This document shows positions 17,878 to 62,778 of a stretch of DNA of 64,000 bases, in pieces. The position numbers were made by a program, and so were the translations under genes. The stretch spans positions 32,001 through 96,000 of the IMG/VR virus record IMGVR_UViG_2920693923_000001. The stretch is one strand, 5' to 3'. The DNA comes from a virus. Taxonomy: Duplodnaviria; Caudoviricetes. The number at the start of each line of letters is the position of its first letter. The first letter of the stretch is position 1. The notes under the pieces were generated by a model. It was given only the letters and a program-made list of their open reading frames with translations, was not told the origin of the DNA and did not search any database.

Positions 17878-19620
17878 TTAATTGTATTTTGCTTTACGAA
17901 TTGTAAGCTTTGAAACTAATGATTGTGTATCTTGTGTCTTAGGTTTTAATTTTAATTCCAATTGGCAAGCACACCAATAAGAATAGGCAATAGAAGAATA
18001 TCTATCTTTCCTCATACCTTCAACTTCTTTAACCTTGATATTTCCGTTTTTAACTTCATGATCCAATTTAATCAATTCGTAAACGGCAAATGTTGTTTGT
18101 ACATAAGACATTTTCAATTTTGCTTGCTCTGTTGGAGACATTTTGAAATATCCCTTATATGTTTCTTTTAATGAGCTATCCGCATCCTGTTCAGAAATAA
18201 GAAAATTAATTTTTCCATTCTGTATACCATTTCTAAGTAATACGCATATCTCATTATTAAAATTAGCATTAGCTTTTACAGACCAAACAACTTTATTAGC
18301 ATCACGAACTTTGCATCGTTCAGCCATATCTTTATCATTTATACAAGTCATTGCCTGATATCTTTTACCGTTTTCTTGGCACACTTGATCCTTGGTAATA
18401 AAATCATATACTCCCAAGCCGATTCCGTTTGTATCTAAAACTAAATCTGTACATTGATACTCATAAAAATATTTCATAACAATCATTCCTAATTCATCTG
18501 TTTTCAAACCTTCAAAAGTTTCACCATATACAAAATTTGATTGATATGCAGTATCGTTTACTTGAATTAAGTCGTTAATAAAAATAGCAGAGGCATCATT
18601 CTTTTTCTTTTTCGTAGATTGCATAAGAGCAACGTCAATAGATAGTATTCTTTTACCAGTAGCTGTTAATTTCGGAATTGTTATTTTGTCATTGCAGAAA
18701 CTCAATGGTGGAAATGCTTTACGAAGTCTTCTACGAGCAGTTAATTCATCAAATTTAAACAAACTACCATCTGTATCCCCAAACCACAAACATTCCATTT
18801 CCATCTGCTGAACAAGTTCGTTGTAATCAGCTTCACTCATTTCATCTTCAAGCTGAGAACGAGAGAGTAATCCTTCACGCACCGATACCTGATAAGGTAA
18901 TCCACATATGAAATATTTTTTTGTGTCATCAAAGAAATTAAGAGTGTAACTTTGCGCTTTTTTATAAGCCCATGAACTTTTAAAATATGCACTGGACATA
19001 TATATTTCTTTGTTTCTTTCCTGCATATGAGCATATTCTGGTTTTTGTAAATATTTTGGCTGTCTTGGACTTGTTAAGAATTTACGCAATACAGTATTGA
19101 TAACTGTTTCATCGACCATACGAAATTCATCCACAACTATGCAATTTGCTCTGGCTGATCTTGAATTTTCTGAACTGGTTCTTGTTTTTATCCACGAACC
19201 ATTTTTGAAATAAATAGAAGCGTCATTTTGACCAATATTACATTTTTCTATTTCAGAACGTAATATGGAAGATTGTTTCATGAAATCGTCTTGTATTTTC
19301 AGCAAGACTTCGTTAGCCTGTTTTAGAGTTCCAGAACTAACAACTATTTTTGTACCAGGAAATAAAATACACCTTACACAACAGAAGAGAGCAGTAAGAT
19401 AGGTTTTTCCTTGACCTCTTGCTGCGAGATACATAACAAAGTTATAGTGCATCATGCACCACAAGAGAATTTGCTGAAACCACTTAAGAGATAGTCCCAA
19501 GACCTCAGATACATACCTATGTGGATTGGCACGATAATATCCCGCCTTCCATGCAATCGTCTCCATTATCTTTTGTTGCTTGTCTTTCTCTATTTCCGTC
19601 TGAGTTTTTAATTGAGGCAT
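17878..19620 (-). CDS. terL: terminase large subunit
   Basis: Walker A ARGQGKT, Walker B IVVDE, YMSSA coupling motif, RNase H-like SIDVA, DTNGIG and KDRYS. Confidence 0.92.
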   Translation of the reverse strand: MPQLKTQTEIEKDKQQKIMETIAWKAGYYRANPHRYVSEVLGLSLKWFQQILLWCMMHYNFVMYLAARGQGKTYLTALFCCVRCILFPGTKIVVSSGTLKQANEVLLKIQDDFMKQSSILRSEIEKCNIGQNDASIYFKNGSWIKTRTSSENSRSARANCIVVDEFRMVDETVINTVLRKFLTSPRQPKYLQKPEYAHMQERNKEIYMSSAYFKSSWAYKKAQSYTLNFFDDTKKYFICGLPYQVSVREGLLSRSQLEDEMSEADYNELVQQMEMECLWFGDTDGSLFKFDELTARRRLRKAFPPLSFCNDKITIPKLTATGKRILSIDVALMQSTKKKKNDASAIFINDLIQVNDTAYQSNFVYGETFEGLKTDELGMIVMKYFYEYQCTDLVLDTNGIGLGVYDFITKDQVCQENGKRYQAMTCINDKDMAERCKVRDANKVVWSVKANANFNNEICVLLRNGIQNGKINFLISEQDADSSLKETYKGYFKMSPTEQAKLKMSYVQTTFAVYELIKLDHEVKNGNIKVKEVEGMRKDRYSSIAYSYWCACQLELKLKPKTQDTQSLVSKLTIRKAKYN

Positions 19621-19623
19621 AAA

Positions 19624-20703
19624 CTATACCTCCTCTTCAGCTTTTTGACCAAATATCTTATCAAATAATGCTTCCGAATCAGTATCCTCATCATACTCAG
19701 GTTTCTTAACTGTATATTTTGAAATGAATTTTTCATATGTAGATGAAAAAGCATTTTTCAATCCCATCATTTTAGATAAATGTCCCTTAAAGAAAACATC
19801 AATTAAAAGTCCAATTTTATCAGGATCTTTGAATTCACCTTCTGGTTCTGGAATCGGTTTTCCACCGTCCCATTCACCTTCCCATTTATCAATAAGCTGC
19901 CCAAATGTAAGATTATCAGTTAATTCAGACGCAGTTTTCTGATTAGGTTTGATATTTAAGCTTCCTAGCAGATTCTGTAAAGTAGCATCTAAATCTTTTG
20001 TATCTTTTCCGTTTTTCTGAGCATTATCTATTTCAAGTTCCTTACAACATACTCGTTTAAATAAAAGTTCCTGAGATTTATTTTCACAGGGGTAACGTGT
20101 CGTCCAATCTTGGTATTCCGTTTCAAGATACATAAGTTCTTCATTGTTATAATTATTTCCAAATCGCTTTTTTGCAGATTTGAGAGTTTTTTGAACAATT
20201 TTCGTATTTGTTTCAGGCATTGAATCTTCATCATCTACCGAGAATATCGAATCTTTATAAGTTTTTTGACTATAATCATTTAGGCTTCTACAAATTACAA
20301 TCCACTGTTGAACAGCAGTGCTTCTTATTTTTTCTCCTGTTTGTTCAGAGAGTTTTTGTAACTGCTCATTATAAACATTTTCATCAAAATACCAATTAAG
20401 TCTTCTAAATGTTTCTATGGTTTTCTCACGATTGTCAGTTCGTGTATTATTTTTTTTGTCGTAATCAGTACATTCATTTAATACACATTCCTTACAAGCA
20501 TAATGTTCAATACCATCAGGACTTGCCTTAGAAGAGTAGAATGTTGCTACACTTTTCCATTGTCCACAATGGCTACAATATATTAGCTCATTGTTCATAA
20601 TGCGCTGATAGAAATTTGCAAGCTTTTTGTATTCATTACGCAAATTCACAACTGTAATTTTCTTCAATTCAGCATCTGAAATTGGCTCTAAAACTTTAGC
20701 CAT
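19624..20703 (-). CDS. Zn-finger protein upstream of terL, probable terminase small subunit
   Basis: CxxC...CKxC N-terminus; immediately precedes terL. Confidence 0.5.
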   Translation of the reverse strand: MAKVLEPISDAELKKITVVNLRNEYKKLANFYQRIMNNELIYCSHCGQWKSVATFYSSKASPDGIEHYACKECVLNECTDYDKKNNTRTDNREKTIETFRRLNWYFDENVYNEQLQKLSEQTGEKIRSTAVQQWIVICRSLNDYSQKTYKDSIFSVDDEDSMPETNTKIVQKTLKSAKKRFGNNYNNEELMYLETEYQDWTTRYPCENKSQELLFKRVCCKELEIDNAQKNGKDTKDLDATLQNLLGSLNIKPNQKTASELTDNLTFGQLIDKWEGEWDGGKPIPEPEGEFKDPDKIGLLIDVFFKGHLSKMMGLKNAFSSTYEKFISKYTVKKPEYDEDTDSEALFDKIFGQKAEEEV

Positions 20704-20823
20704 TGTTTCACCTTCTTTCCTTTTATTTCAACACAAAAAGAAGCCACTTCATACGAAATGACTTCTCATAATTTCCAATATTAAATTTCCAATGAAAGTG
20801 CAATTTACACACTTTTTAAATAA

Positions 20824-20961
20824 TTGAACATAAGGACTTGCACCTTACTCACACCAAGTATAGGAATCGAACCTATATAGTATCCCGTATGCCTTTTCTA
20901 GCCTTATCCATACTATTAACCATTTATCGGAATCGAACCGACCTCACACTATGCTGTTCAA
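20824..20961 (-). ncRNA. structured RNA with three tRNA T-loop hairpins
   Basis: closing stem TTGAACA/TGTTCAA; hairpins TCGG-TTCGATT-CCGA, TATAGG-TTCGATT-CCTATA and TAAGG-TGCAAGT-CCTTA. Confidence 0.6.
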
Positions 20962-20989
20962 CTTTTACTTGTATATACTTTCAAATAAG

Positions 20990-21062
20990 CACACCTTCTA
21001 CGATTTGAACATAGACCTGACGATTTTGGAGATCGTTGCTCTACCAATTAAGCTAAAGGTGT
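20990..21062 (-). tRNA. trnW: tRNA-Trp(CCA)
   Basis: cloverleaf; anticodon arm ACGAT-CTCCAAA-ATCGT; T-loop TTCAAAT; CCA end not encoded. Confidence 0.9.
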
Positions 21063-21141
21063 ATATTTATGTTGAATTATTTATTAATATGTTATATACT
21101 TAATAAGTAACCGATAGTTTGTTTTTAAAAGGAGGTATAAT

Positions 21142-21348
21142 ATGAACAGAGAAGGAACTGGGAAATTTAATACCGATTCAAGTGGACATACTCATAGGTA
21201 CGACAAAGGCGGCGGATCTGATATTGATACATCAGATAAAACACAAAAAACTTGTGATGGAGGACATATTCCTGGAAGATATCAGTGGGAAGAAACTGTT
21301 GATGTTTCGGCAGATGATGAAGATAATGACGATACAGAAGATGATTAA
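21142..21348 (+). CDS. small acidic protein, self-contained moron-like unit
   Basis: TTGAAT-17-TATACT promoter (21072-21100), AAGGAGGT RBS, hairpin terminator near 21370-21405. Confidence 0.7.
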   Translation: MNREGTGKFNTDSSGHTHRYDKGGGSDIDTSDKTQKTCDGGHIPGRYQWEETVDVSADDEDNDDTEDD

Positions 21349-21445
21349 AAATTAATATTATTAAACATCATATAAGGGGTTATCATATTTGATAATCTCT
21401 TATATTTTATTTGTTTTTCATTGAATTCATCAATAAAAATCAATA

Positions 21446-21521
21446 ACTTGAACCTATGCACCGAATAAACGATGACCTCTGATTAGCAATCAGGTGCAAT
21501 ACCAACTCTGCCAATACTACA
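21446..21521 (-). pseudogene. 3'-truncated tRNA-Ser(GCT)
   Basis: D arm, anticodon loop TTGCTAA, long variable arm and GGTTCAAG present; T-stem 3' strand and acceptor 3' strand missing. Confidence 0.7.
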
Positions 21522-21609
21522 TAATAAAAAGAGCCACCTCCAAATGACTCTTTCTTTAAAGCTTTTACCAATCAGTCGCCAAACCGGTTATAACTGTATA
21601 GAGCAGTAG

Positions 21610-21683
21610 TCTGGATAGCAGGACTCGAACCTACAACGTCTAGTTCCCAAAACTAGCGGACTACCAAATTGTCCTATATCCAG
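21610..21683 (-). tRNA. trnP: tRNA-Pro(TGG)
   Basis: acceptor CTGGATA/TATCCAG; anticodon arm CTAGT-TTTGGGA-ACTAG; GGTTCGAGTCC. Confidence 0.9.
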
Positions 21684-21741
21684 ATAATATTTTTCAAATT
21701 TCTCCATATACTAAACCAAAAGTATCTAAGGAGAAACTATC

Positions 21742-22410
21742 ATGAACGCTTCATATAAAACTGCAATTCAATTCAAAGATTTATATATTCCCGTAAAAAT
21801 GTTAAAAACATCACACAATAGTTCTATAGAACTTAATCAACTCTGCAAAGACTCCAAAGAAAGAGTGCGTTATATCAAATTTTGTCCATCTTGTAATAAA
21901 GAAATCCACAATGAAGATATTGTAAAAGGATATAAATATGCAGAAGATAAGTATGTTATTTTGGAACAATATGATATAGAATCAATTACATCAAACAAAG
22001 ATAGAACACTTTCAATAAAATATTTCTGTAAATCAAAGGAAATATCAGACCTACTCATAGATAAATCATATTATTTAATTCCTGAAATGGAGTCAGAAAT
22101 CGAATATGAACTTCTTCGTAAAGCTATGACTACGAATAGAGTAGTAGGTATGGCTGAAATTGTATTGGGTACAAAACAAGAATTAGTTGCGTTGTTTGCC
22201 AATAAGAATTGTATTATTGCAACCATTTTATTTTATGAGAACGAGATTAACGAATTACCGATTATCATGAAGCATAAAACAGATAAACAGCAACTCGAAA
22301 ATCTCAAACAAGATATCTTAGATAATACAAAAGAATTTGATTGGGAATCTCATTATGATAAATATCAACTCAAGTTAAGAAAATTGATATTTGATAAAAT
22401 TCCAAAATGA
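21742..22410 (+). CDS. ku: Ku DNA end-binding protein (prokaryotic NHEJ / Mu Gam-like role)
   Basis: IPVKM, LNQLC..RVRY...CPSC..EI..EDIVKGY.Y, YYLIPE, DKYQ..L.KLI..K. Confidence 0.9.
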   Translation: MNASYKTAIQFKDLYIPVKMLKTSHNSSIELNQLCKDSKERVRYIKFCPSCNKEIHNEDIVKGYKYAEDKYVILEQYDIESITSNKDRTLSIKYFCKSKEISDLLIDKSYYLIPEMESEIEYELLRKAMTTNRVVGMAEIVLGTKQELVALFANKNCIIATILFYENEINELPIIMKHKTDKQQLENLKQDILDNTKEFDWESHYDKYQLKLRKLIFDKIPK

Positions 22411-22606
22411 TATTGCCTTTCTCATTCCATCCTCGAATGGCGAGCTTTCATCTAAACTGCATAGGACGCATCCTATTGTTACAACAGTACCAGTCCGAAG
22501 ACCGCAAAGGGCATAGGGAGGTAGTAAGTGTTGAACTTACACACCTAAGTTTCGTATGCATCCAAAAAATAGGTTTTGGCATCAGACTTACCGCACGAAA
22601 CTTATA

Positions 22607-22852
22607 TTATGGTTCGGATGGATCGGTAATCTCATCCACAGTAACTCCAACATTGTATGTCACATCCTTAATGACACGAATATTTTTATATCCATATTCT
22701 CGATCAAGCTCTTTAATTGTACTTTTCAACTCATCCAAGTCATCCGTTGAGTATTCGATTAGTTCCGATAAAGAACCTTCAGTCTGAATCTGATACATTT
22801 GATAAAATTCTCTTCCAAGCACAGAGTTATATTTAATTAATATTTTATACAT
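22607..22852 (-). CDS. hypothetical protein
   Basis: 81 aa with GGAGGT RBS. Confidence 0.6.
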   Translation of the reverse strand: MYKILIKYNSVLGREFYQMYQIQTEGSLSELIEYSTDDLDELKSTIKELDREYGYKNIRVIKDVTYNVGVTVDEITDPSEP

Positions 22853-22886
22853 ATATAAATTACCTCCAAAATGATAGAATTAGAAA

Positions 22887-22960
22887 AGCTGCCGATAGGG
22901 TTTGAACCTACAACCTTGGCTTTAGAAGAACCATGCTCTATCCATTTGAGCTAAGACAGC
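22887..22960 (-). tRNA. trnR: tRNA-Arg(TCT)
   Basis: anticodon arm TGGTT-CTTCTAA-AGCCA; D arm GCTCAAATGGATAGAGC; one acceptor mismatch. Confidence 0.85.
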
Positions 22961-23172
22961 AAGTTTCTGGTCTGCATGAAGCACTAACTAGCAGATCTTG
23001 GACTGTACACATCCAGTTATTTAGAATATGGTCGCTTATCCGCAACCTAATTCATGCTTCCATGCACTTGTTTTTCTTGCTAACCAACGCACAAGAAGAG
23101 TAAGTGACAACTCGTATCAACCAAACTACATTGTGCTTATGTATTGATACTCCATTAATTTATCCAGTTGCA

Positions 23173-23243
23173 ACGCCACAACGGACTCGAACCGAAATCT
23201 TCTCTCTATAGGAGAGACGCATGATCCTTTCATGCTGGTGACC
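23173..23243 (-). tRNA. atypical tRNA-like element (anticodon loop CCTATAG, nominally TAT)
   Basis: GGTTCGAGTCC T-arm, D-like GCATG/CATGC stem, TCTCT/AGAGA stem; lacks U33 and has a weak acceptor stem. Confidence 0.4.
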
Positions 23244-23259
23244 TGAATAATATATTATT

Positions 23260-23781
23260 TGATCATTCCTAACTCGTACTTATAGTACGTCAAATGCATG
23301 ATATGTGTATGAACAACCGTTTACTTTATCATTCTCCGCATATTTTCAGTCTTCGGAACAAAGACCACTCGATAAGGTTTAATGACTCTTATCCGTCAAA
23401 ATTCCAATTGTAAAAATCAGAAAAGACAATTTGCCATTTCTTACAAAACTCTGTGGACAGTTTTAATCATAATAATGGTTCTCATTAACGCAGAGAAGCA
23501 CGAACATCTTCTCATTTCTGAAGGTTGAGAAATACCGATAATCCTAGATGTTGGTAGGAAAGAAGTAGGACTTACAATACTACATGAATAGCAAATGCCA
23601 AGATGTGATAGTCGTCTACTAAGGCAAGACTTCTCCATAACACCGCCAATGAGCAGTAGCAGTGGGAAGTTTTAGACCATTCCAAAGGTCAATAATTTCG
23701 CAAACCGACCTTTATATTTATGTCACATATCGGTCAGTGACAGCTCACTTGTAAAAGTCCGTCAACGGATTGACAGATCAC
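23260..23781 (-). ncRNA. large ornate structured RNA (ROOL/GOLLD-class candidate)
   Basis: ~520 nt without credible ORF next to tRNAs; terminal TGATC/GATCA pairing, many hairpins, two loop-mediated long-range complements. Confidence 0.6.
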
Positions 23782-24074
23782 CCTCACTTCTTTTTGGATG
23801 TGAGCAGCTTGTTATATTTATTTATTCTCTACATTGTCGTCACCTTTTTATATATGCCTTTCATGCCTGTTTATAAGGGCTTTATTTGGATAATACAGTG
23901 CTATCGGTCTGTTAGTCCGTCTGATTTTCACAGAGCCTTGTTGAGTTCTTATGGTTTCAGAGCATTCGGCTGTAGGTATATGAGTTTGTTACCCTTAATA
24001 TTATTCAATCACTTTGACATAAATCATCTTAACATGCTATGATGTAAAAAAGAAAATTTTATAAGGAGTATATA

Positions 24075-24710
24075 TTGGACACAATATTTGAAATATTTAA
24101 GACCATTTTTCCTGCTATTATTACTGGAATTTTTACATTCCTAGCCACTAAATATACGTATAATAAAAATATACCTTTAGACAAAATGGAGATAGCATAT
24201 GATAAAATATACAATCCTATATATCATATACTATTACAAAATAATTCTAATAATATATGTACAAATCAAATCAGCTTAGATATATTTGTCATTTTAAATA
24301 AATATAATGATTATGCAGATCGATCGACACTTCACGCATTTGATTTATATCATAAAAATAGAGATAAAGATAGTTTTATAAATTTTAAAAATAACATCAA
24401 TAATAAATACATATATCTTCGCAAAAGACTTGGATATTTAGAACCTAATTTGATACAAGCGTATACATATTCTTCAAAAAATGAAAAATCTGTTTTACGA
24501 TTAGTGTTAGAGTGTACTGTCGCATACATAACAATGCTCGCATATGCATTGTTGAGTGCATCAGTTCACACAGTTATAACATGGATAGCTTTTAGTTTAA
24601 TATGTATCATTATAATTGAGTTATTAACTTTATTTTTTAGGAATATTTTAATTTATATCAGGAAAATTATAAAACATATAAAATCCAATAATAAATGTCG
24701 TAAAAATTGA
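24075..24710 (+). CDS. membrane protein (3 hydrophobic segments), moron-like
   Basis: very low GC; TTGACA/TATGAT promoter near 24014-24043; TAAGGAG RBS. Confidence 0.65.
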   Translation: MDTIFEIFKTIFPAIITGIFTFLATKYTYNKNIPLDKMEIAYDKIYNPIYHILLQNNSNNICTNQISLDIFVILNKYNDYADRSTLHAFDLYHKNRDKDSFINFKNNINNKYIYLRKRLGYLEPNLIQAYTYSSKNEKSVLRLVLECTVAYITMLAYALLSASVHTVITWIAFSLICIIIIELLTLFFRNILIYIRKIIKHIKSNNKCRKN

Positions 24711-24716
24711 CATATT

Positions 24717-24745
24717 TTGACAAGAAGTGTCATATAATATATAAT
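24717..24745 (+). promoter_or_regulatory. consensus sigma-A promoter of type I toxin mRNA
   Basis: TTGACA-17-TATAAT. Confidence 0.85.
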
Positions 24746-24891
24746 AGAAAGGACAAGCAGTTATTCAAACATCTTTGTTTTGGCTAGATAGAGATGGTTA
24801 GGCGGTTAAGTCACGTCAGAGTAGTGATACTCTGTTTATATAGATATCCTCATGACACAATGTAGGAAATACTTACAAAGGAGGATAATAC

Positions 24892-25008
24892 GTGACATTT
24901 TGTGAATTACTAATTTTTACATTAGTGACTGGCATAGTAAGTGGTGTAATTGCTACATACTTAGTCAGATTGTTCGATAAACACAAAAATGACCGCCACG
25001 GCAAATAG
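24892..25008 (+). CDS. type I toxin peptide, 38 aa (MTFCELLIFTLVTGIVSGVIATYLVRLFDKHKNDRHGK)
   Basis: AAGGAGG RBS, GTG start, TM helix plus charged tail, structured 140-nt leader. Confidence 0.8.
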   Translation: MTFCELLIFTLVTGIVSGVIATYLVRLFDKHKNDRHGK

Positions 25009-25135
25009 CGATCATTTCCTTTGTGTTGATATTGTTATATTAGCCAAATAGTGTTCAATATTGGCTTAACCGTCTAACGGATAATTGCTTGTTTCTTTTG
25101 ACTTGTATTGTAACACATAAAATTGTGTGGTGCAA
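24984..25135 (-). ncRNA. antisense antitoxin RNA (~115 nt) with its promoter
   Basis: minus-strand TTGCAC-17-TACAAT (25135-25107); terminator hairpin AAATGATCGC/GCGGTCATTT plus T-run overlapping toxin 3' end. Confidence 0.72.
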
Positions 25136-25180
25136 GAGGGAATTAGACAAAGTGTTAGACAAAAGCCTCATCGGGATTGC

Positions 25181-26218
25181 TTATAAATCAGAAAGTGATT
25201 TTTGTTCTACCTGTTTTATTTCTCCATCAGCAAAATATTTTGCAAATTGTTCATCTGCGTCAATATCTTTGTACACTGATACCATATCTAGCGAACTCCA
25301 ACCGACTAGCATTTGAATTACATCATCAGGAAGACCGCTTCGAGAACAAGAAGTTGTAAAGAAATGACGAAGACTATGAAAATAAAAGTCTTCTCCTAAA
25401 TGTTTGCTGAATGTATCAGCCCAACTGTCAAGAGTGCTTGAATCCATAGGTTCATCTATATATTCTCCATTTGCTTTCTTTGGAAATAACCATTCTGATT
25501 CAATTCCGTGTTCTTTTCTATAATTCATCCACAAATCAAAATATGGCTTAAACGGTTTTGCCAGTGTATATGCTACTAACATTTTTCCGCGAGATCCTCT
25601 TCCTTTTGTTTGGATCTTTTCAGGTGTCTTATATAAAGAACCATATATGATGTTTTCATCATCGAAATAAGATACTTTAAATCGTGGTAACTCACTCTTA
25701 CGTCTGCCACTAAATGCAGCTAATGCTAAAACACAAGCCTTGTCATATTTACCTTTTTCAACCCAATAATCAAGCATACCCTGTACTTGTTCATCGGATA
25801 GTACAGTTTTAGTAAATACTTTCTCATTTGCAGGATTTTCAATTTTGCGTATAATCGGTTTAAAGTTCTCGTACTCATCATCTAATATAGCTTCGACATA
25901 ATTTGAAAGAGAAGAGAGAGTAGATTTTACTCTACGCATTCTAGCTGGTGACCATTTATATTCAGTAAGACAAAAACTCTGATAACGAGCAATATCCCTC
26001 TTAGATAAATCAATAAAGAATTTGTTGTCGCAATGCTGAAGTAAATACACCCAGAAAATATAAAGGTCACGCCTATATGCATTAATTGTATTTGGGGATC
26101 TATCAACTGAATGAAGATAATCCAAAAAGTCATTTCCTAACTCTATATTCTCTTTATTGCACTGAGACAATAACTCATTAGTAACAATATTATTATGCTG
26201 TATTTTTCTACCCATCAA
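25181..26218 (-). CDS. tyrosine recombinase (XerC/D-like, with N-terminal SAM-like domain)
   Basis: SGRRKSEL, KGRG, FHSLRHFF, LVGWSS..MVSVY. Confidence 0.9.
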   Translation of the reverse strand: MMGRKIQHNNIVTNELLSQCNKENIELGNDFLDYLHSVDRSPNTINAYRRDLYIFWVYLLQHCDNKFFIDLSKRDIARYQSFCLTEYKWSPARMRRVKSTLSSLSNYVEAILDDEYENFKPIIRKIENPANEKVFTKTVLSDEQVQGMLDYWVEKGKYDKACVLALAAFSGRRKSELPRFKVSYFDDENIIYGSLYKTPEKIQTKGRGSRGKMLVAYTLAKPFKPYFDLWMNYRKEHGIESEWLFPKKANGEYIDEPMDSSTLDSWADTFSKHLGEDFYFHSLRHFFTTSCSRSGLPDDVIQMLVGWSSLDMVSVYKDIDADEQFAKYFADGEIKQVEQKSLSDL

Positions 26219-31015: not shown

Positions 31016-31605
31016 AAAAGAGTGCAGTAGTTATACCTTCAGAACGAAAATACAACTACTGCTAAAAGAAGAGTTGTTTTTATGAAATGTATTATCTGTT
31101 TGAAAACGCCTTGATTTGCTACCCGTAGGCATGAATCCATATATCTTCCACAGAATGTATATGGTACAGGCTCGCTTGCTGCACTTACCTGGTTTGGCGC
31201 ACACATATACAAGTTTTTCACATAGCGTCACAGCAATGATTTATAGCTATATGTTAGACGAAATATTATAATGTCTCTCGACAATTATATATTCTCTGTT
31301 TTATCAGCTAGGAAAAGCTGATTTCATTGTTTTTAGCCTTACGGCATAGCCCTCAATTAAGAGGGCTTTTCTTTTGTAATAAAAACGATCGTTGCATATT
31401 TTTATTCCGCATTTGCATTTAAGCGGAGAGGATAGTTGTGTTGGTATTGTACTAAGTACACGCAAATTTACGCTATTATACATAGATAAAGTTTCATTGC
31501 CCACTTTCTCCTCATAAGTTCACTTAACTACAACTGCTACAACCGTTGATTTTACTAGCTTTTTGATATAGTAAAATAATTAAGTCTGTACAAAAAATGT
31601 GCATT

Positions 31606-46868: not shown

Positions 46869-49341
46869 ATGCTGAAAATTGAAATTAAAACAGGTGGTGC
46901 AGCTTATAGAAATGAAGATGGCGAACTTGACAGAAGTGCATATGAGTTAAGGCGAAATTTAAAAGAAATTGAAGAAAAACTTGAATACGGATATCAAGCT
47001 GGTTACATAATGGATATCAACGGAAATAAAGTTGGTAATTGGACACTTGAAGATTAGCAGGAAATTGTAATTTCAGGAGGTAATAAACATGGCAGAAAGA
47101 TACATAAAAGAGTATGCAAATGATTGTAAGAGAAAAATTGAAGAAAATAATCTAATTAGGAGTAATTTAAAAAATAAGATAATTGCAAAAATCAATAAGG
47201 CTGTAAAGCTAAGGGATAAAGAGCTGATTACAGCAGATGAAGCGATTAAAATAATATTGGAACGATTTGAGGCTTAATACAGAGAATAATAAGGCAGACG
47301 CAAACAAATGTGTCTGTCTTATTTTATTGGAAAGGAGAATGTGAAATGAAACAGAATCAGGTTTGCTATTACATTGAAGATAGTCAGTTTGCAATGTATG
47401 TATCATATGGAATATATGAGTATAAAACAATGTGTACTCACAAAGTATCACGGTTGAAAGCACCAGAAATCAGATTAATAAATGGAGTCCCATTTGATGA
47501 TTTCCAGTCAGAAACGGAATTTAAGAAAGTTCCTAAAGGATGGACTTATAGCACAGATTTATATACAGTCACAGAGGATCTGGAAAAGAAAAAGAAAATT
47601 AATGTTGCAATGAAAGGCAGATACATCAAAAATCCTTCAGATATTCAGTGGTTATTTGATAATGGTTATCTTGTAAAAATGGAAGATGTAGAACCTATTA
47701 TTGAACCTGAGTTTGATCATAATACATATAGACTTGTAAAAAAATATCCTGCATGGACACAGTGTTATGGAAGTCATAATGATGCATATCCAAATGAAGT
47801 GTTCGAGACTTATGAGGCTGCTGAAAAGCGAATGGATGAAATTAAGGAAAATAGGCATAGAAAAGCGGTTGAATGTGCATTATTAGACTTTTATGAGAAT
47901 TTAGAATGGGCATTAGAAAAATATGAAGCTGAACATGGTGGAAGAGAAATTGAAAAAATAAGGCAGAAAATTTTAGCAAGACCACATTTAGATGACATTA
48001 TGTTTAGATACTACAAGGGAGAAATTCTTGTCGTATCAAGGGAAGCACATAGAAAAGACACACATATTGAATGGGAAAAGATAGCATAGAAAGTGAGGTT
48101 GATTGATATGTTGGAAAGTTATGTTATGGAAAGTGCAGATTATGCAAAGATTAAGAAATTAATGACACTACACAATATGGAAACATTTTGGGATGACGTT
48201 AGAAAATTCACAAAGAATGTGAGATCGGATCATAGTTTAGGTAGATGGCAGATATTATCAGAAGCGAGATATGGTGAATTAATGCAAGCGAAACGTAGTT
48301 TTTATGAAGATTAAAATGAGGTGATTGATAATGATATGTGAAATAAGCAAGAAAATATTAAATGAAGTATATGGTGGAGATACAAAAGAATCAAGAGAAA
48401 AAGCGATTAAAGATGGATATTTTATGGAATGGACAAAAGAAAGAATTAAAAATGCATTTAAAGCAGGAAATGGAACAGAAAAGGATTTAAAAAGATATAT
48501 GAATGATAATAAACAATATTGTGTATTTGTAGAAATTTAAACCCAGTTGATAGAACTGTTTCTTGAAAAGAAAGTGAGGTACAAAATATGAAAACAATAA
48601 TTAATAGAAGCGAATGTAAACCATTAAGTGACAACATTGAAGGTAAGTTGGTAGTAATTAAACCAGATTTTTTCAAACCAGAATTTAGAGAAGCAAAATA
48701 TCAGATTGTACTTGCAACTGGAGGTTTTGGTTGTGATGCAAATAAGATGGGAAATGCGGTATATATAGAAGAAGTTCATACTGATAATCCAGAGCATTAC
48801 AGACAGGAAAGATACAACCTTATTGGTGAACCAACAGAAGAGATTATTAAGGAATGGAAATCAATGTATGGTGAATTTAATGAAAAAGTACAGAAAGCAT
48901 TGGAGGTGTAGGAATTATGATGACAAGAGAAAGATTTGCGGAGACAAACTGGAAAATGAGTTATGAGGAATATCAGAAATGCTATTGTCCTGAATGTAAA
49001 AAAGAAGAATGTCCACACAGAGGAGCAATAAGAAGAGTACCTGAAATTGATGGTGGACTTGGTTTATGTCCTAATCTGAAGGGAGAGTGATTAAAATGGT
49101 AGTAGAACGTAGATGTATTAATCTTTATTCTGATATGAATCCGTGGATGAATTTAGTTTTATTGGTAAATGATGAAGATTTTGATAAGGCAAAAGAAGTA
49201 ACAGAAAAAGCCTTTGATGATTTTTGGAATGATCCAAAAGTTGAAGAAGAATGTTGGTCTTATGGAGATTGGATTGGATGGAAACTGAAAGAAGTAGGTA
49301 TCGAATATGATATGTATTTTAGAGATGGAAAGGATGATTAA
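46869..49341 (+). other. cluster of small hypothetical early genes, including a ~250-aa ORF (47346-48089)
   Basis: co-oriented ORFs with SD sequences. Confidence 0.65.
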
Positions 49342-52500: not shown

Positions 52501-54538
52501 AGAGTCGCCTAGTATGGTATAATAGTTACATATATAAGAGAAAGGAGGGAGACAAATGGAAGTTGATGCAATGACAAAATACAAAGGTTGGTATACGAAA
52601 GCATTAAATGCTTCAGAAAGACATGATGTGAATGATTTCTTGAATTATACATTAACGATTTATAATGGGACATCATTAAATGCACCAGACGACTTGTTAA
52701 AGTTGACTGAAGATGATGCAGATGTAAGCAAAGATGAAAAGCATAAAATCATGGTCAAGACATTATTAACATTACAGAATCAGCTAAAGACAAGAAAATA
52801 TTTATAATTTTTTAACTAATAGTTTAATAGGCACATATTGGAATGTAAATATTAATCTTTTATTGAAAAATGTTTTTAATTAATAGATACATTTTGGAAC
52901 GTATAATTTAAAGCTGTATATAAAGAAAAAGGAGATGATGATATGGACAGTCTAGCATTGATTATTACAATCGCTCTTATTTGTATAGGACGCAAGATAT
53001 ACATTGAAGCAAAAGTAAATAGCTATGATCTTGATAAGGTGTCAATCGGAAAAATGGCTATGGATGCTGGTAAAAGCCCATCACAGATAAAAAGTAAGAT
53101 GGTATCTGGTGGTTACAACAAAGATAGTAAATGGAAAATATAGGAGAACAAATGGAGATTATTAATCCTTATGAGGTATATGGATGTGATGGAACGGAAA
53201 TGGTGGTTGTATCTAAGGTAGAACGTAATATAACAGATGATATTGTATTATTGATGCAGCTCGAAAATCTTGATCGGATCTATCATAAACAGAAAACGGA
53301 AATCGGTCGATACTTACGGTATTGTACAACGGCAGAAATAATGAAAATTAATAAAGCAGTAAACAGAATATTGGGATGAAAGGGTGGTAGATATTATGAA
53401 TAATACTATTATATTATTAGAGAGTAAAGCAAATTTAACACGGAGGGAATATCAAAAATTTGCAAAGAGAGATACAATTAGGAGGTAAAGACTTATGAAT
53501 GATTTTACAATATATAGGAATTATGGAGTACTTGGGGCTGAAAAAAGAAATATATATACATATGGAGCACCGCATCTTAGAGGAGTCTGTAATGATGAGT
53601 TAAAAGTTAAGTTACCTGATGATTGCAATTGGAAGTTATGTGAGAATAATTTTGGTCAGACTATGATAGAAGCCCCTTGGGGTTGGACATATAATCTCAA
53701 TGAAGTGTTACAGGGAAATGAAAATCCATGTTTGTATGCTTTGGATAAAGATCAGAAGGCACATAGAGTTGAATTAGTAATTATTGAAGAGAAATAGAGA
53801 ATATAAAAGTAGAGCAAGCCATCGGAAATTAATCTGATGGCTTTTATCAAAAAAGGAAGGTAATTATTATGGAAGAACTTATATGTGGAGTAATATGGTT
53901 TGCATTATGTTTTTTTGCTATATGGATTACAAGAGATAAGGACACAATAGAGGAAAATAGAAAAAGACAATTCCAAGAACAGGTTCACGAGTTGTATAAA
54001 ATTGGTGATGTGGAAGATGTTATTTTAAAAGAAAAGAGGTAATCATTATGGCGCAGTTAATCGGATGTTTAGTAGCAATGTATTTATGTATTTATCTTCC
54101 TTGGAAAGCGAACCAAAGGGAAGAATCTCGTAAGAGACAAGATATGTATAATAACTTAAACAAGAAGTCTGTAGATGAAATGGGAAAGTGGAGAAAATAA
54201 GAAGGGTGGTGTATTATATGAAAAGAGAAGATTTTAAGAAGATTATTAAACTGCGTAGTTTCTGGAAAATTGATAAACGAAAAGGCAATTATGAATTACC
54301 TAACGGAAAGCATTTGTCAGATTATGTATCAGATCTTATTGAGTCTCAAATGAAACTCGACACTTTAGGCATTAGAAAAAATGGGGATTTATGTTTTGTT
54401 TCTGGTGGCACATGGAACGTTGAAACAAAAGAATTTGAAGACTATACTCTTATGCCATCATTTAAAAATAATGAGATGTGTTCATATGATGAAATGCAAA
54501 AAAGGATTAATTGTTTAATTCGTGAATTATTATATTAA
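49538..54538 (+). other. cluster of about 18 small hypothetical early genes
   Basis: co-oriented short ORFs with SD sequences. Confidence 0.65.
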
Positions 54539-58133: not shown

Positions 58134-58216
58134 ATTATAGCACCATTACTTATTAAAACAGAGAATATTAAAGTAACAAGAAACCAAGTTTTCTTGTGAC
58201 ATGGAGGTGTTTATAA

Positions 58217-62427: not shown

Positions 62428-62778
62428 ATGAATATTAATACATTTGATATTCTATTAATCAATTTTGGCAAAGTAGAATTTGATGGAGAGCAAGCTGGCA
62501 TAAGACCTGCAATAGTTATACAAAATACACTTGGAAACAGATTTAGTGATACAACTATAGTAATACCATTTACTACTAAAATAAAGAATATTGATCAATC
62601 TACACATTCTCTTTTTATGAGAGGAACTGGCGGTTTAACACAAAGTTCAATGTTATTAGGGGAATGTGTTAGACAAGTTTCCAAACAGAGAATAATAAAG
62701 AAGATTGGTTCAATTAGTGATAGGGCGACTAAATTGGAAGTTAAAAGAGTGTATGAATCAAACTTCGGGGAGGTGTAA
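62428..62778 (+). CDS. mazF: PemK/MazF-family protein
   Basis: DI.LINFG...GEQAGIRPAIVIQN..GN.FS.TTIVIPFTT. Confidence 0.88.
   Translation: MNINTFDILLINFGKVEFDGEQAGIRPAIVIQNTLGNRFSDTTIVIPFTTKIKNIDQSTHSLFMRGTGGLTQSSMLLGECVRQVSKQRIIKKIGSISDRATKLEVKRVYESNFGEV

Follow-up and report, generated by a model that had tools for sequence, protein, structure and literature searches.

The question raised by this locus is whether a long non-coding interval at the head of a phage tRNA-gene island holds one large RNA or several small elements. The interval covers positions 23260-23781 (522 nt, minus strand) of the window, i.e., the whole 64,000-nt stretch of DNA analysed here, which corresponds to bases 32001-96000 of the 159.9-kb IMG/VR virus record IMGVR_UViG_2920693923_000001 and has a G+C content of ~32%. 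An earlier note, made from a single sequence, had described the interval as one ornate RNA of ~520 nt. Comparison with related phages leads us elsewhere. The interval is best described, with good comparative support, as the predicted upstream leader of the tRNA island, made up of at least seven independently exchangeable cassettes and not of one RNA. Equally well supported is the prediction that one piece of it, which we call R1, belongs to a real and new family of structured RNAs, in which three hairpins are locked by two pseudoknots. Overall, we consider it probable that the leader is an array of swappable small non-coding RNA (ncRNA) cassettes and promoter pieces, R1 being a new family within it.

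The comparison set consisted of 65 related loci fetched via a protein search with phrog_3314 (44-99% amino-acid identity), against which positions 20701-25200 were mapped by blastn. Recurring modules with sharp ends appeared in varied combinations: 23971-23817, 23845/23825-23566, 23610-23561, 23563-23471, 23399-23325, 23259-23160 and 23062-22971. In the closest relatives (L002, L003, L009 and L015), with flanks 97-99% identical, ~40 nt replaces 23816-23611, and in L045 and L014 the same slot is filled by a different cassette of ~210 nt, designated V; the window's own type is designated W. The smallest leaders (L055 and L064) pass from the stop codon of the recombinase gene through 23534-23471, 23399-23325 and 23018-22971 directly to a tRNA, and the tRNA complement downstream varies between phages as well. 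Cassettes are therefore gained, lost or replaced among close relatives, with breakpoints just downstream of promoter-like elements. Discrete modules come, go and are swapped independently of one another, so that the 522-nt interval is not inherited as a whole. Alignments were made for each module separately; the one whole-leader alignment (MAFFT E-INS-i) put homologous cassettes in the wrong places. Outside this phage group, a blastn search with 23100-24100 against 50,697 GenBank phage records gave no match.

Sharp breakpoints that recur at the same motifs, together with a gene for a tyrosine recombinase with a SAM-like N-domain (25181-26218) directly upstream of the array, might suggest that the elements act as DNA, namely as folded single-strand sites similar to integron attC, or as attP arms for the adjacent recombinase, with R1 or the AGAGAATA motif as candidate sites. 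Such a scenario would explain the exchange of cassettes, yet it strikes us as quite improbable. In the hybrid locus L079, where the 5' half of W is joined to the 3' half of V, the crossover falls inside at least 17 identical nt, as in homologous recombination, and the conserved blocks flanking the cassettes can be the homology arms. Moreover, R1 is missing from many arrays that still vary, and the invariant and variable G.U pairs, as well as the two tertiary loop pairings of R1 described below, fit RNA and not duplex DNA.

Returning to exchangeable RNA and promoter cassettes, the same mosaic bears directly on the single large RNA, whose pieces occur independently of one another. Every complementary string quoted in its favour does exist on the minus strand, exactly where it had been placed, and it is the conservation of the pairings that separates them. 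The proposed terminal stem joins TGATC (23780-23776) to GATCA (23264-23260); TGATC reads CGGTC in all other copies of cassette W, and the cassette containing GATCA was found by blastn only in some of the relatives carrying W. The loop ACCGATA (23734-23728) had been paired with TATCGGT (23540-23534), about 190 nt away, in a module missing from many loci that retain the loop; the conserved partner of ACCGA is the nearer UCGGU (23708-23704). Similarly, the stem GGCATTTGC/GCAAATTGTC suffers from the fact that the cassette 23470-23400 is missing from many relatives possessing 23610-23561. The closing stem and both long-range pairings are thus unconserved. The stem AAAGGTC/GACCTTT is present in the window; it overlaps one pseudoknot and one hairpin of R1 (PK1 and hairpin B), both conserved, and has no counterpart in the types V, U and X, so that it can be no more than a W-specific alternative fold.

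Thermodynamics points the same way: the interval as a whole has a minimum free energy (MFE) of -128.8 kcal/mol, compared with -121.2 ± 5.8 kcal/mol for dinucleotide shuffles (z -1.30), and eight of 100 shuffles fold as well. We also scanned all 4227 models of Rfam 15, at the gathering score over the window and at E ≤ 10 over 20500-25000 and 23150-24050. At the gathering score the entire window yielded tRNAs only, none of them inside 23260-23781, where ARAGORN found none either. At E ≤ 10 the region 23150-24050 gave a single weak chance match, psRNA6, on the plus strand upstream of the interval (9.3 bits against a gathering score of 60). The scan that the earlier note had proposed for ROOL, GOLLD, OLE and raiA thus returned none of the four at E ≤ 10. 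In particular, the ROOL model (RF03087) gave no match at the gathering score in the window or at E ≤ 10 in the two subregions, and the GOLLD model (RF02032) gave none in the window, though the same model detects GOLLD in the relative L065. The drum model (RF02958), positive in the relatives L091 and L056, gave no match in the window at E ≤ 10.

What remains in favour of one large RNA is its setting. The interval is non-coding (its small open reading frames (ORFs) match neither PHROGs nor protein families, in agreement with the earlier note, which saw no credible ORF), it lies near tRNAs with phage genes on both sides, and a tRNA island of a Bacillota phage is the typical context of ROOL and GOLLD (PMC5737381), the latter being present in a relative. 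The general idea of ornate RNAs beside phage tRNAs does suit this phage group, in which relatives carry GOLLD and drum. However, two promoter-like elements lie inside the interval, and the supported structure is only ~110 nt long, with no multistem junction, unlike a large ornate RNA of the ROOL kind. We therefore regard it as extremely improbable that 23781-23260 is one ROOL-like or otherwise new large RNA closed by TGATC/GATCA and a 190-nt pseudoknot. Of the two options offered earlier, "ROOL-like" falls, and "new class" holds for the ~110-nt piece 23754-23641. For annotation, the lesson is that what looks like a "large ornate RNA" in a single sequence can turn out to be several small, independent units strung together.

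This piece is R1, whose core of type W occupies 23641..23754 on the minus strand, as do all of its parts. Its limits come from an alignment of the types W and V with a distant copy found in L141. From its 5' side, R1 comprises the pentamer UGAGC (23747-23743), which is one strand of the second pseudoknot, PK2; hairpin A (23742-23721), formed by TGTCAC (23742-23737) and GTGACA (23726-23721); the H-type pseudoknot PK1, in which ACCGA of loop A (23734-23730) pairs with UCGGU (23708-23704); hairpin B, in which GACC (23690-23687) pairs with GGUC (23678-23675) around an 8-nt loop; the linker UAAAAC; and hairpin C (23664-23641). In hairpin C, CACTGCTA (23664-23657) pairs with TGGCGGTG (23648-23641), and its loop GCUCA (23654-23650) pairs back with the 5' UGAGC to complete PK2. 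The consensus across types keeps this order: the pentamer UGAKC, hairpin A, an A-rich linker with the PK1 strand, hairpin B (4 bp, loop of 8-9 nt), UAAAA(C), and hairpin C with an 8-nt loop, CUGMUCAU, complementary to the 5' pentamer. The window copy possesses all of these features; its score of 116 bits against the R1 model is high by construction, the copy having been part of the model's alignment. Conservation begins at AAGUGA and stops directly after hairpin C in all types, and the invariant U.G pairs in hairpin C place R1 on the minus strand. No Rfam model matches R1 at E ≤ 10.

The three pairings that the earlier note had named within this piece (hairpins A and C and the pseudoknot between the GCTCA loop and TGAGC) are all backed by covariation. 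Among the 22 aligned copies of cassette W, compensatory changes occur in hairpin A, where A-U becomes G-C in six sequences, and in the 8-bp hairpin of the unit preceding R1. RNAalifold, run on one of the alignments, chose pairings that ignore the one clearly compensated hairpin, and named structures were therefore counted instead. In a MAFFT alignment of R1, the predicted pairs are 95.7% paired, eight pairs are changed on both sides, and the covariation is 0.371, against at most 0.098 for slid partners. The covariance model of R1 was built from hairpins A-C only; aligned with it and with PK2 added, the copies are 95.6% paired; in 10 of the 19 pairs both partners change, and the covariation is 0.391, against at most 0.068 for slid partners. 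Since PK2 is absent from the model, its covariation is independent of the alignment method.

The individual elements illustrate how this covariation arises. PK2 is formed by UGAGC/GCUCA in type W, by UGAUC/GAUCA or UGAGC/GCUCA in type V (12 of 13 variants match, in an otherwise near-identical sequence) and by UGAGU/ACUCA in type U. PK1 reads ACCGA/UCGGU in W, CUCGU/ACGAG in V and AUACCGG/CCGGGUAU in X, and its changes in L085 and L154 are compatible with wobble pairing. Hairpin B shows four unrelated complementary solutions (GACC/GGUC, GAGU/ACUC, GUCC/GGAC and CGGG/CCCG), and hairpin A has an entirely different, yet complementary, sequence in each type. Folding energy agrees in the case of R1-W, with an MFE z of -2.73. 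A reading of hairpins B and C as a tRNA-like structure was also considered and rejected: the spacing is wrong, and no tRNA model matches.

A compact fold with two pseudoknots and invariant loop nucleotides, CUGCUCAU and UAAAAC, calls to mind a small self-cleaving ribozyme that would process the island transcript. The phage and tRNA context is typical of small ribozymes, and the 5' boundary of R1 coincides with a pseudoknot strand. Nevertheless, no Rfam ribozyme model matches at E ≤ 10, no conserved cleavage-site signature was identified, and the similar orphan motifs DUF3800-I and FuFi-1 as well as skipping-rope did not self-cleave in vitro (PMC5737381), so that we see only a slim chance of R1 being a ribozyme.

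The R1 model finds exactly one copy, on a constant strand and in a constant slot, in 22 of 67 loci, and type U occurs in two more (L012 and L037). At least five sequence types (W, V, U, X and X2) are known from two phage lineages. Scanning for the invariant hairpin-C motif gave 76 viral loci and revealed that W and V have the central architecture in common and even recombine inside it, as in L079. In a corresponding metagenome scan, 11 of the 80 loci fetched have R1, including the new type X2, and the 69 without it look like chance matches. The second lineage is represented by L141 and by L158, a relative of L141 that came out of the metagenome scan; it has a local G+C content of ~50% and no tRNAs nearby; its terminase and exonuclease are only ~25% identical to those of the window. 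Even so distant a phage carries R1, of type X, in the syntenic slot between the exonuclease block and the packaging genes. A YonO-like polymerase was not found in the L141 record, so that an obligatory link between R1 and YonO is not supported. The R1 model gave nothing convincing in 151 Lachnospiraceae genomes and two metagenome-assembled genomes (MAGs) with related prophage genes, and none in an 8-kb SPbeta stretch from yonO to yonF (best score 10.5 bits). A weak R1-like match (19.9 bits) with a hairpin-C-like stem, CGCUA/UGGCG, lies in a second leader at L013:1702-1828, preceded by another AGAGAATATATA motif and followed by a tRNA; it has no evident partner for PK2.

The other modules of the array, all on the same strand, are simpler. 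R1-W is preceded by W1 (23751..23816), a terminator-like unit of ~60 nt with two hairpins: CTCAC/GTGAG (23804-23800 with 23787-23783) and an 8-bp helix, TCTGTCAA/TTGACGGA (23777-23770 with 23765-23758), followed by CUUUUAC. This helix is paired in 100% of 22 sequences, and four of its pairs vary (G.U/G-C/A-U; A-U to G-C). W1 has an MFE z of -2.11 and occurs without R1-W in L103, where it stands ahead of a V cassette. As a terminator, the copy in the window has the 8-bp stem and only 4 U, and a terminator scan did not list it; most relatives have AUUUUUAC at the 3' end of W1. Overall, W1 resembles a small RNA, or a leader, that closes with a terminator-like hairpin. On the other side of R1, cassette W closes with a 3' tail (23611..23640) that holds a small hairpin, GUCU/AGAC, and is type-specific, with other sequence in V, L070, L096 and L103.

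Farther 3', the modules M3-M6 (23565-23471, 23470-23400, 23399-23325 and 23324-23260) consist of local hairpins whose stems hardly vary. M3 (23471..23565) starts with a variable leader, in this window a long hairpin CAUCU...AGAUG that contains TATCGGT, and ends in a conserved block around GUGCUUCUCUGCGUUAAUGAGAACC (23502-23476), which is kept in 85 hits; many relatives have unrelated sequence in place of its 5' part. M4 (23400..23470) is an optional cassette with the hairpins AAAACU/AGUUUU and AAUUGU/ACAAUU; it is absent from L010, L047, L055 and others, and in relatives its slot holds drum RNA or nothing. M5 (23325..23399), with the hairpins GAUAAG/CUUAUC and GUCUU/AAGAC and a promoter-like end, is the core leader module found in nearly all relatives; its 62 hits comprise 29 unique variants, with nearly invariant stems that show one-sided G.U changes only. 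M6 (23260..23324), confined to the closest relatives, contains the hairpin CGUACU/AGUACG and GATCA and leads into a tRNA-like element at 23244-23172.

Two kinds of promoter-like elements punctuate this array. The window contains 15 copies of the motif RGAGAATRWWWA, where 1.25 would be expected, a 12-fold excess. This phage motif, written AGAGAATAWWWA or AAAYAGAGAATAWWWA, is co-oriented with local transcription in both arms, with no exceptions, and often lies 20-40 nt upstream of a Shine-Dalgarno (SD) sequence and ATG, or is followed after 10-20 nt by a hairpin or SD-ATG. Examples are found at 31297-31286, 37531-37520 and 38142-38131 (minus strand) and at 47281-47292, 53796-53807, 58160-58171 and 62687-62698 (plus strand). 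One copy, AGAGAATAAATA (23819..23830, minus strand), includes the GAGAATA (23829-23823) that the earlier note had seen upstream of the interval, and a second, GGAGAATGATAA (23337-23326, minus strand), forms the 3' end of M5. Cassette breakpoints, such as 23817/23816, lie ~7 nt downstream of its GAGAAT, where a transcription start would be expected. Altogether, it is probably a phage-specific promoter; the SPbeta yonO-yonF region does not contain it. The other kind is M2 (23566..23610, minus strand), found in a promoter scan and resembling a sigma-A-type promoter: TTGGCA (23601-23596), a 16-nt spacer and TATTGT (23579-23574), with 9 of 12 consensus positions. Relatives keep the hexamers with three different spacers, and a cassette breakpoint follows at about 23566-23561.

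Taken together, these observations allow us to propose how the array might work. Each cassette would be either a gene for a small ncRNA or a piece of a promoter or leader, and transcription would run in the direction of the tRNAs. R1 would be released as a discrete, nuclease-resistant small RNA with its 5' end tucked into a pseudoknot and would act in trans as an accessory factor, probably by binding a protein. It would be accessory and inessential because the closest relatives do without it. We favour this reading because R1 is optional among near-identical genomes, is compact and has a buried 5' end, and we hold it tentatively, as the leading candidate among several and not as a settled function.

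Alternatively, R1 and W1 could form a cis-acting leader of the tRNA and late (packaging) operon, either as a 5' stabiliser that hides the 5' end in PK2 from RNase J-type decay or as an attenuator or antitermination element controlling read-through into the tRNA and terminase genes. R1 always precedes the tRNA and terminase genes, in the same orientation as these, and in L141, which has no tRNAs, it stands directly upstream of the packaging genes. A promoter-like motif abuts the 5' pentamer in type V, so that the predicted 5' end falls inside PK2; W1 ends in a hairpin with a U-run, and the phage encodes a beta-CASP/RMMBL nuclease. On the other side, the closest relatives keep the operon without R1. 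Furthermore, the promoter-like M2 lies between R1 and the tRNAs, and no conserved feature 3' of hairpin C resembles an expression platform. A cis-acting leader thus seems unlikely to us; it ranks second, after a trans-acting accessory RNA, and the readings of R1 as a ribozyme or of the elements as DNA sites are less likely still.

Several points weigh against the picture of an array of small RNA genes with R1 as one of its families. In the window, no promoter motif belongs to R1 itself, which comes after the terminator-like hairpin of W1; therefore, R1 may arise only by read-through. All promoter calls are made at the level of a consensus. The V, U and X copies of R1 have unremarkable folding energies (z -0.57, -0.07 and -0.18 in pseudoknot-free folding), PK2 is mismatched in one variant (L100), and only four of its five pairs form in X and X2. 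Much of the R1 covariation is between cassette types, and related sequences may exceed shuffle controls without any structure.

The wider interest of the finding lies mainly in the context of the array, in which other orphan structured RNAs occupy equivalent places. Drum RNA, an orphan structured RNA described by Weinberg et al. 2017 (PMC5737381), scores above its gathering threshold at L091:2281-2388 (51.9 bits) and L056:3598-3703 (54.3 bits), in both cases between the conserved end of M3 and M5, i.e., in the slot of 23470-23400 in the window. In L141, a DUF3800-VIII RNA (1539-1606, 47.8 bits) and a drum-like match lie directly upstream of R1-X. GOLLD was detected in the relative L065 (501-975; IMGVR_UViG_3300029815_000028) with 170.7 bits (gathering score 150). 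This GOLLD directly precedes a tRNA (1022-1096) and lies ~5.5 kb ahead of the leader in that phage; the slot is probably equivalent to 31020-31300 in the window, upstream of tRNA-Pro, where ~280 nt are non-coding and do not match GOLLD. DUF3800-VIII RNA (RF03075) is also present in Bacillus phage SPBc2 (NC_001884; L268:4120-4185) with 47.5 bits (gathering score 40.2); it sits upstream of yonK, in a gap of 1.7 kb between yonN and yonK that carries no annotation. An unannotated non-coding RNA has been mentioned at the start of the YonO-dependent late operon (PMC5467207), and the DUF3800-VIII RNA of SPBc2 is likely to be that RNA.

These RNAs resemble R1 in setting and differ from it in structure. 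Drum, like R1, is an orphan structured RNA of ~110 nt and an optional cassette in the same leader of sister phages, and yet the two share neither sequence nor model similarity and occupy different slots. ROOL (~581 nt) and GOLLD are, like R1, non-coding, pseudoknotted and located beside tRNAs in Bacillota phages, whereas R1 is about one fifth of their size and has no multistem junctions. The DUF3800-VIII RNA, a small structured RNA heading the late and packaging block of a YonO-type phage as R1 does here, is unrelated to R1 in both sequence and structure. Among more distant systems, the stable RNA species 1 and 2 of T4, an unrelated phage of Gram-negative hosts, are small non-tRNA RNAs embedded in, and co-transcribed with, the T4 tRNA cluster. 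In flaviviral exonuclease-resistant RNAs (xrRNAs) and Bacillus 5' stabilisers, a 5' end held by a pseudoknot in a compact fold can block 5'-3' exonucleases. R1 resembles these by analogy in the arrangement of its 5' end only; there is no homology, and the topology differs, no ring around a three-way junction being seen in R1.

What is new here is the structure of R1; its kind, the orphan structured RNAs of phage tRNA islands, is already known. It is tempting to suppose that R1 is a new compact double-pseudoknot class in a phage ncRNA cassette array and that R1 of types W, V, U and X, drum, DUF3800-VIII and, beside a neighbouring tRNA, GOLLD are interchangeable accessory modules, an idea that we regard as possible and somewhat doubtful. 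GOLLD, ROOL, drum and the DUF3800-associated motifs have been without an assigned function for years. If the idea holds, these long-unexplained orphan RNAs would do analogous jobs in infection, e.g., as protein decoys or in counter-defence alongside phage tRNAs. Near-identical phage genomes of ~155 kb differ in the presence and type of small structured RNAs at fixed leader slots, and this natural isogenic series connects, by position, drum and GOLLD with a pseudoknotted RNA that is new. Provided that the cassettes are functionally analogous, such a swap series in near-isogenic phages, used either by comparing the phages or by exchanging cassettes in a relative that can be cultivated, would open several classes of orphan RNA to direct tests of function.

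A link between R1 and DUF3800 genes was considered and dropped: R1-positive genomes mostly lack the gene, which is missing from five of them, and the copy belonging to the window's phage is 31 kb away. That copy (G000:C1:23749-24342, 44.3 bits) lies in the same phage genome, ~8 kb before the start of the window. The genome of L091, one of the two with drum, also encodes a DUF3800 protein.

Phage genes surround the array. Downstream of the interval lie the tRNA genes (22887-22960 and farther downstream; tRNA-Arg, tRNA-Pro and tRNA-Trp), on the same minus strand, followed by the genes for the Zn-ribbon protein phrog_3314 (19624-20703) and the large terminase (17878-19620). Farther upstream are an SbcD-like exonuclease, the beta-CASP/RMMBL nuclease and an ORF of 869 amino acids, whose closest GenBank relatives are found in human faecal phage contigs, Enterocloster phages and Clostridium phage c-st. 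Since related prophage genes are present in MAGs of Candidatus Colivicinus and Faecalimonas, the host is a member of Bacillota. The relative L055 (record G156) is 155.5 kb long, has direct terminal repeats and is rated 100% complete, which makes these free phage genomes of ~155 kb, though the window's own record is labelled a provirus.

Some minor elements near the interval deserve a comment. Just upstream, Module A (23832-23975, minus strand) is a non-coding segment of ~140 nt that is 86-99% conserved in 27 loci; in most relatives it contains a short variable hairpin (GAGU-loop-ACUC), which in this window gives way to unpaired sequence. Module A might represent a further small RNA or belong to the promoter region as its upstream portion. 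Just downstream, the tRNA-like element at 23172-23244 (minus strand) is called by ARAGORN only, as tRNA-Tyr with anticodon AUA, the Rfam tRNA model being silent. Its anticodon arm and T-loop are good, its acceptor stem is poor, and it is kept in the closest relatives; for its counterpart in L018 and L046, ARAGORN calls an anticodon of 4 nt. A pseudogene and a tRNA-like RNA of an unusual sort are both conceivable. Finally, a Ku-like gene (PF02735, E 4.6e-36) and an ORF of 126 amino acids lie on the opposite strand within the tRNA island (21742-22787, plus strand), and both come and go among relatives, as other cassettes do.

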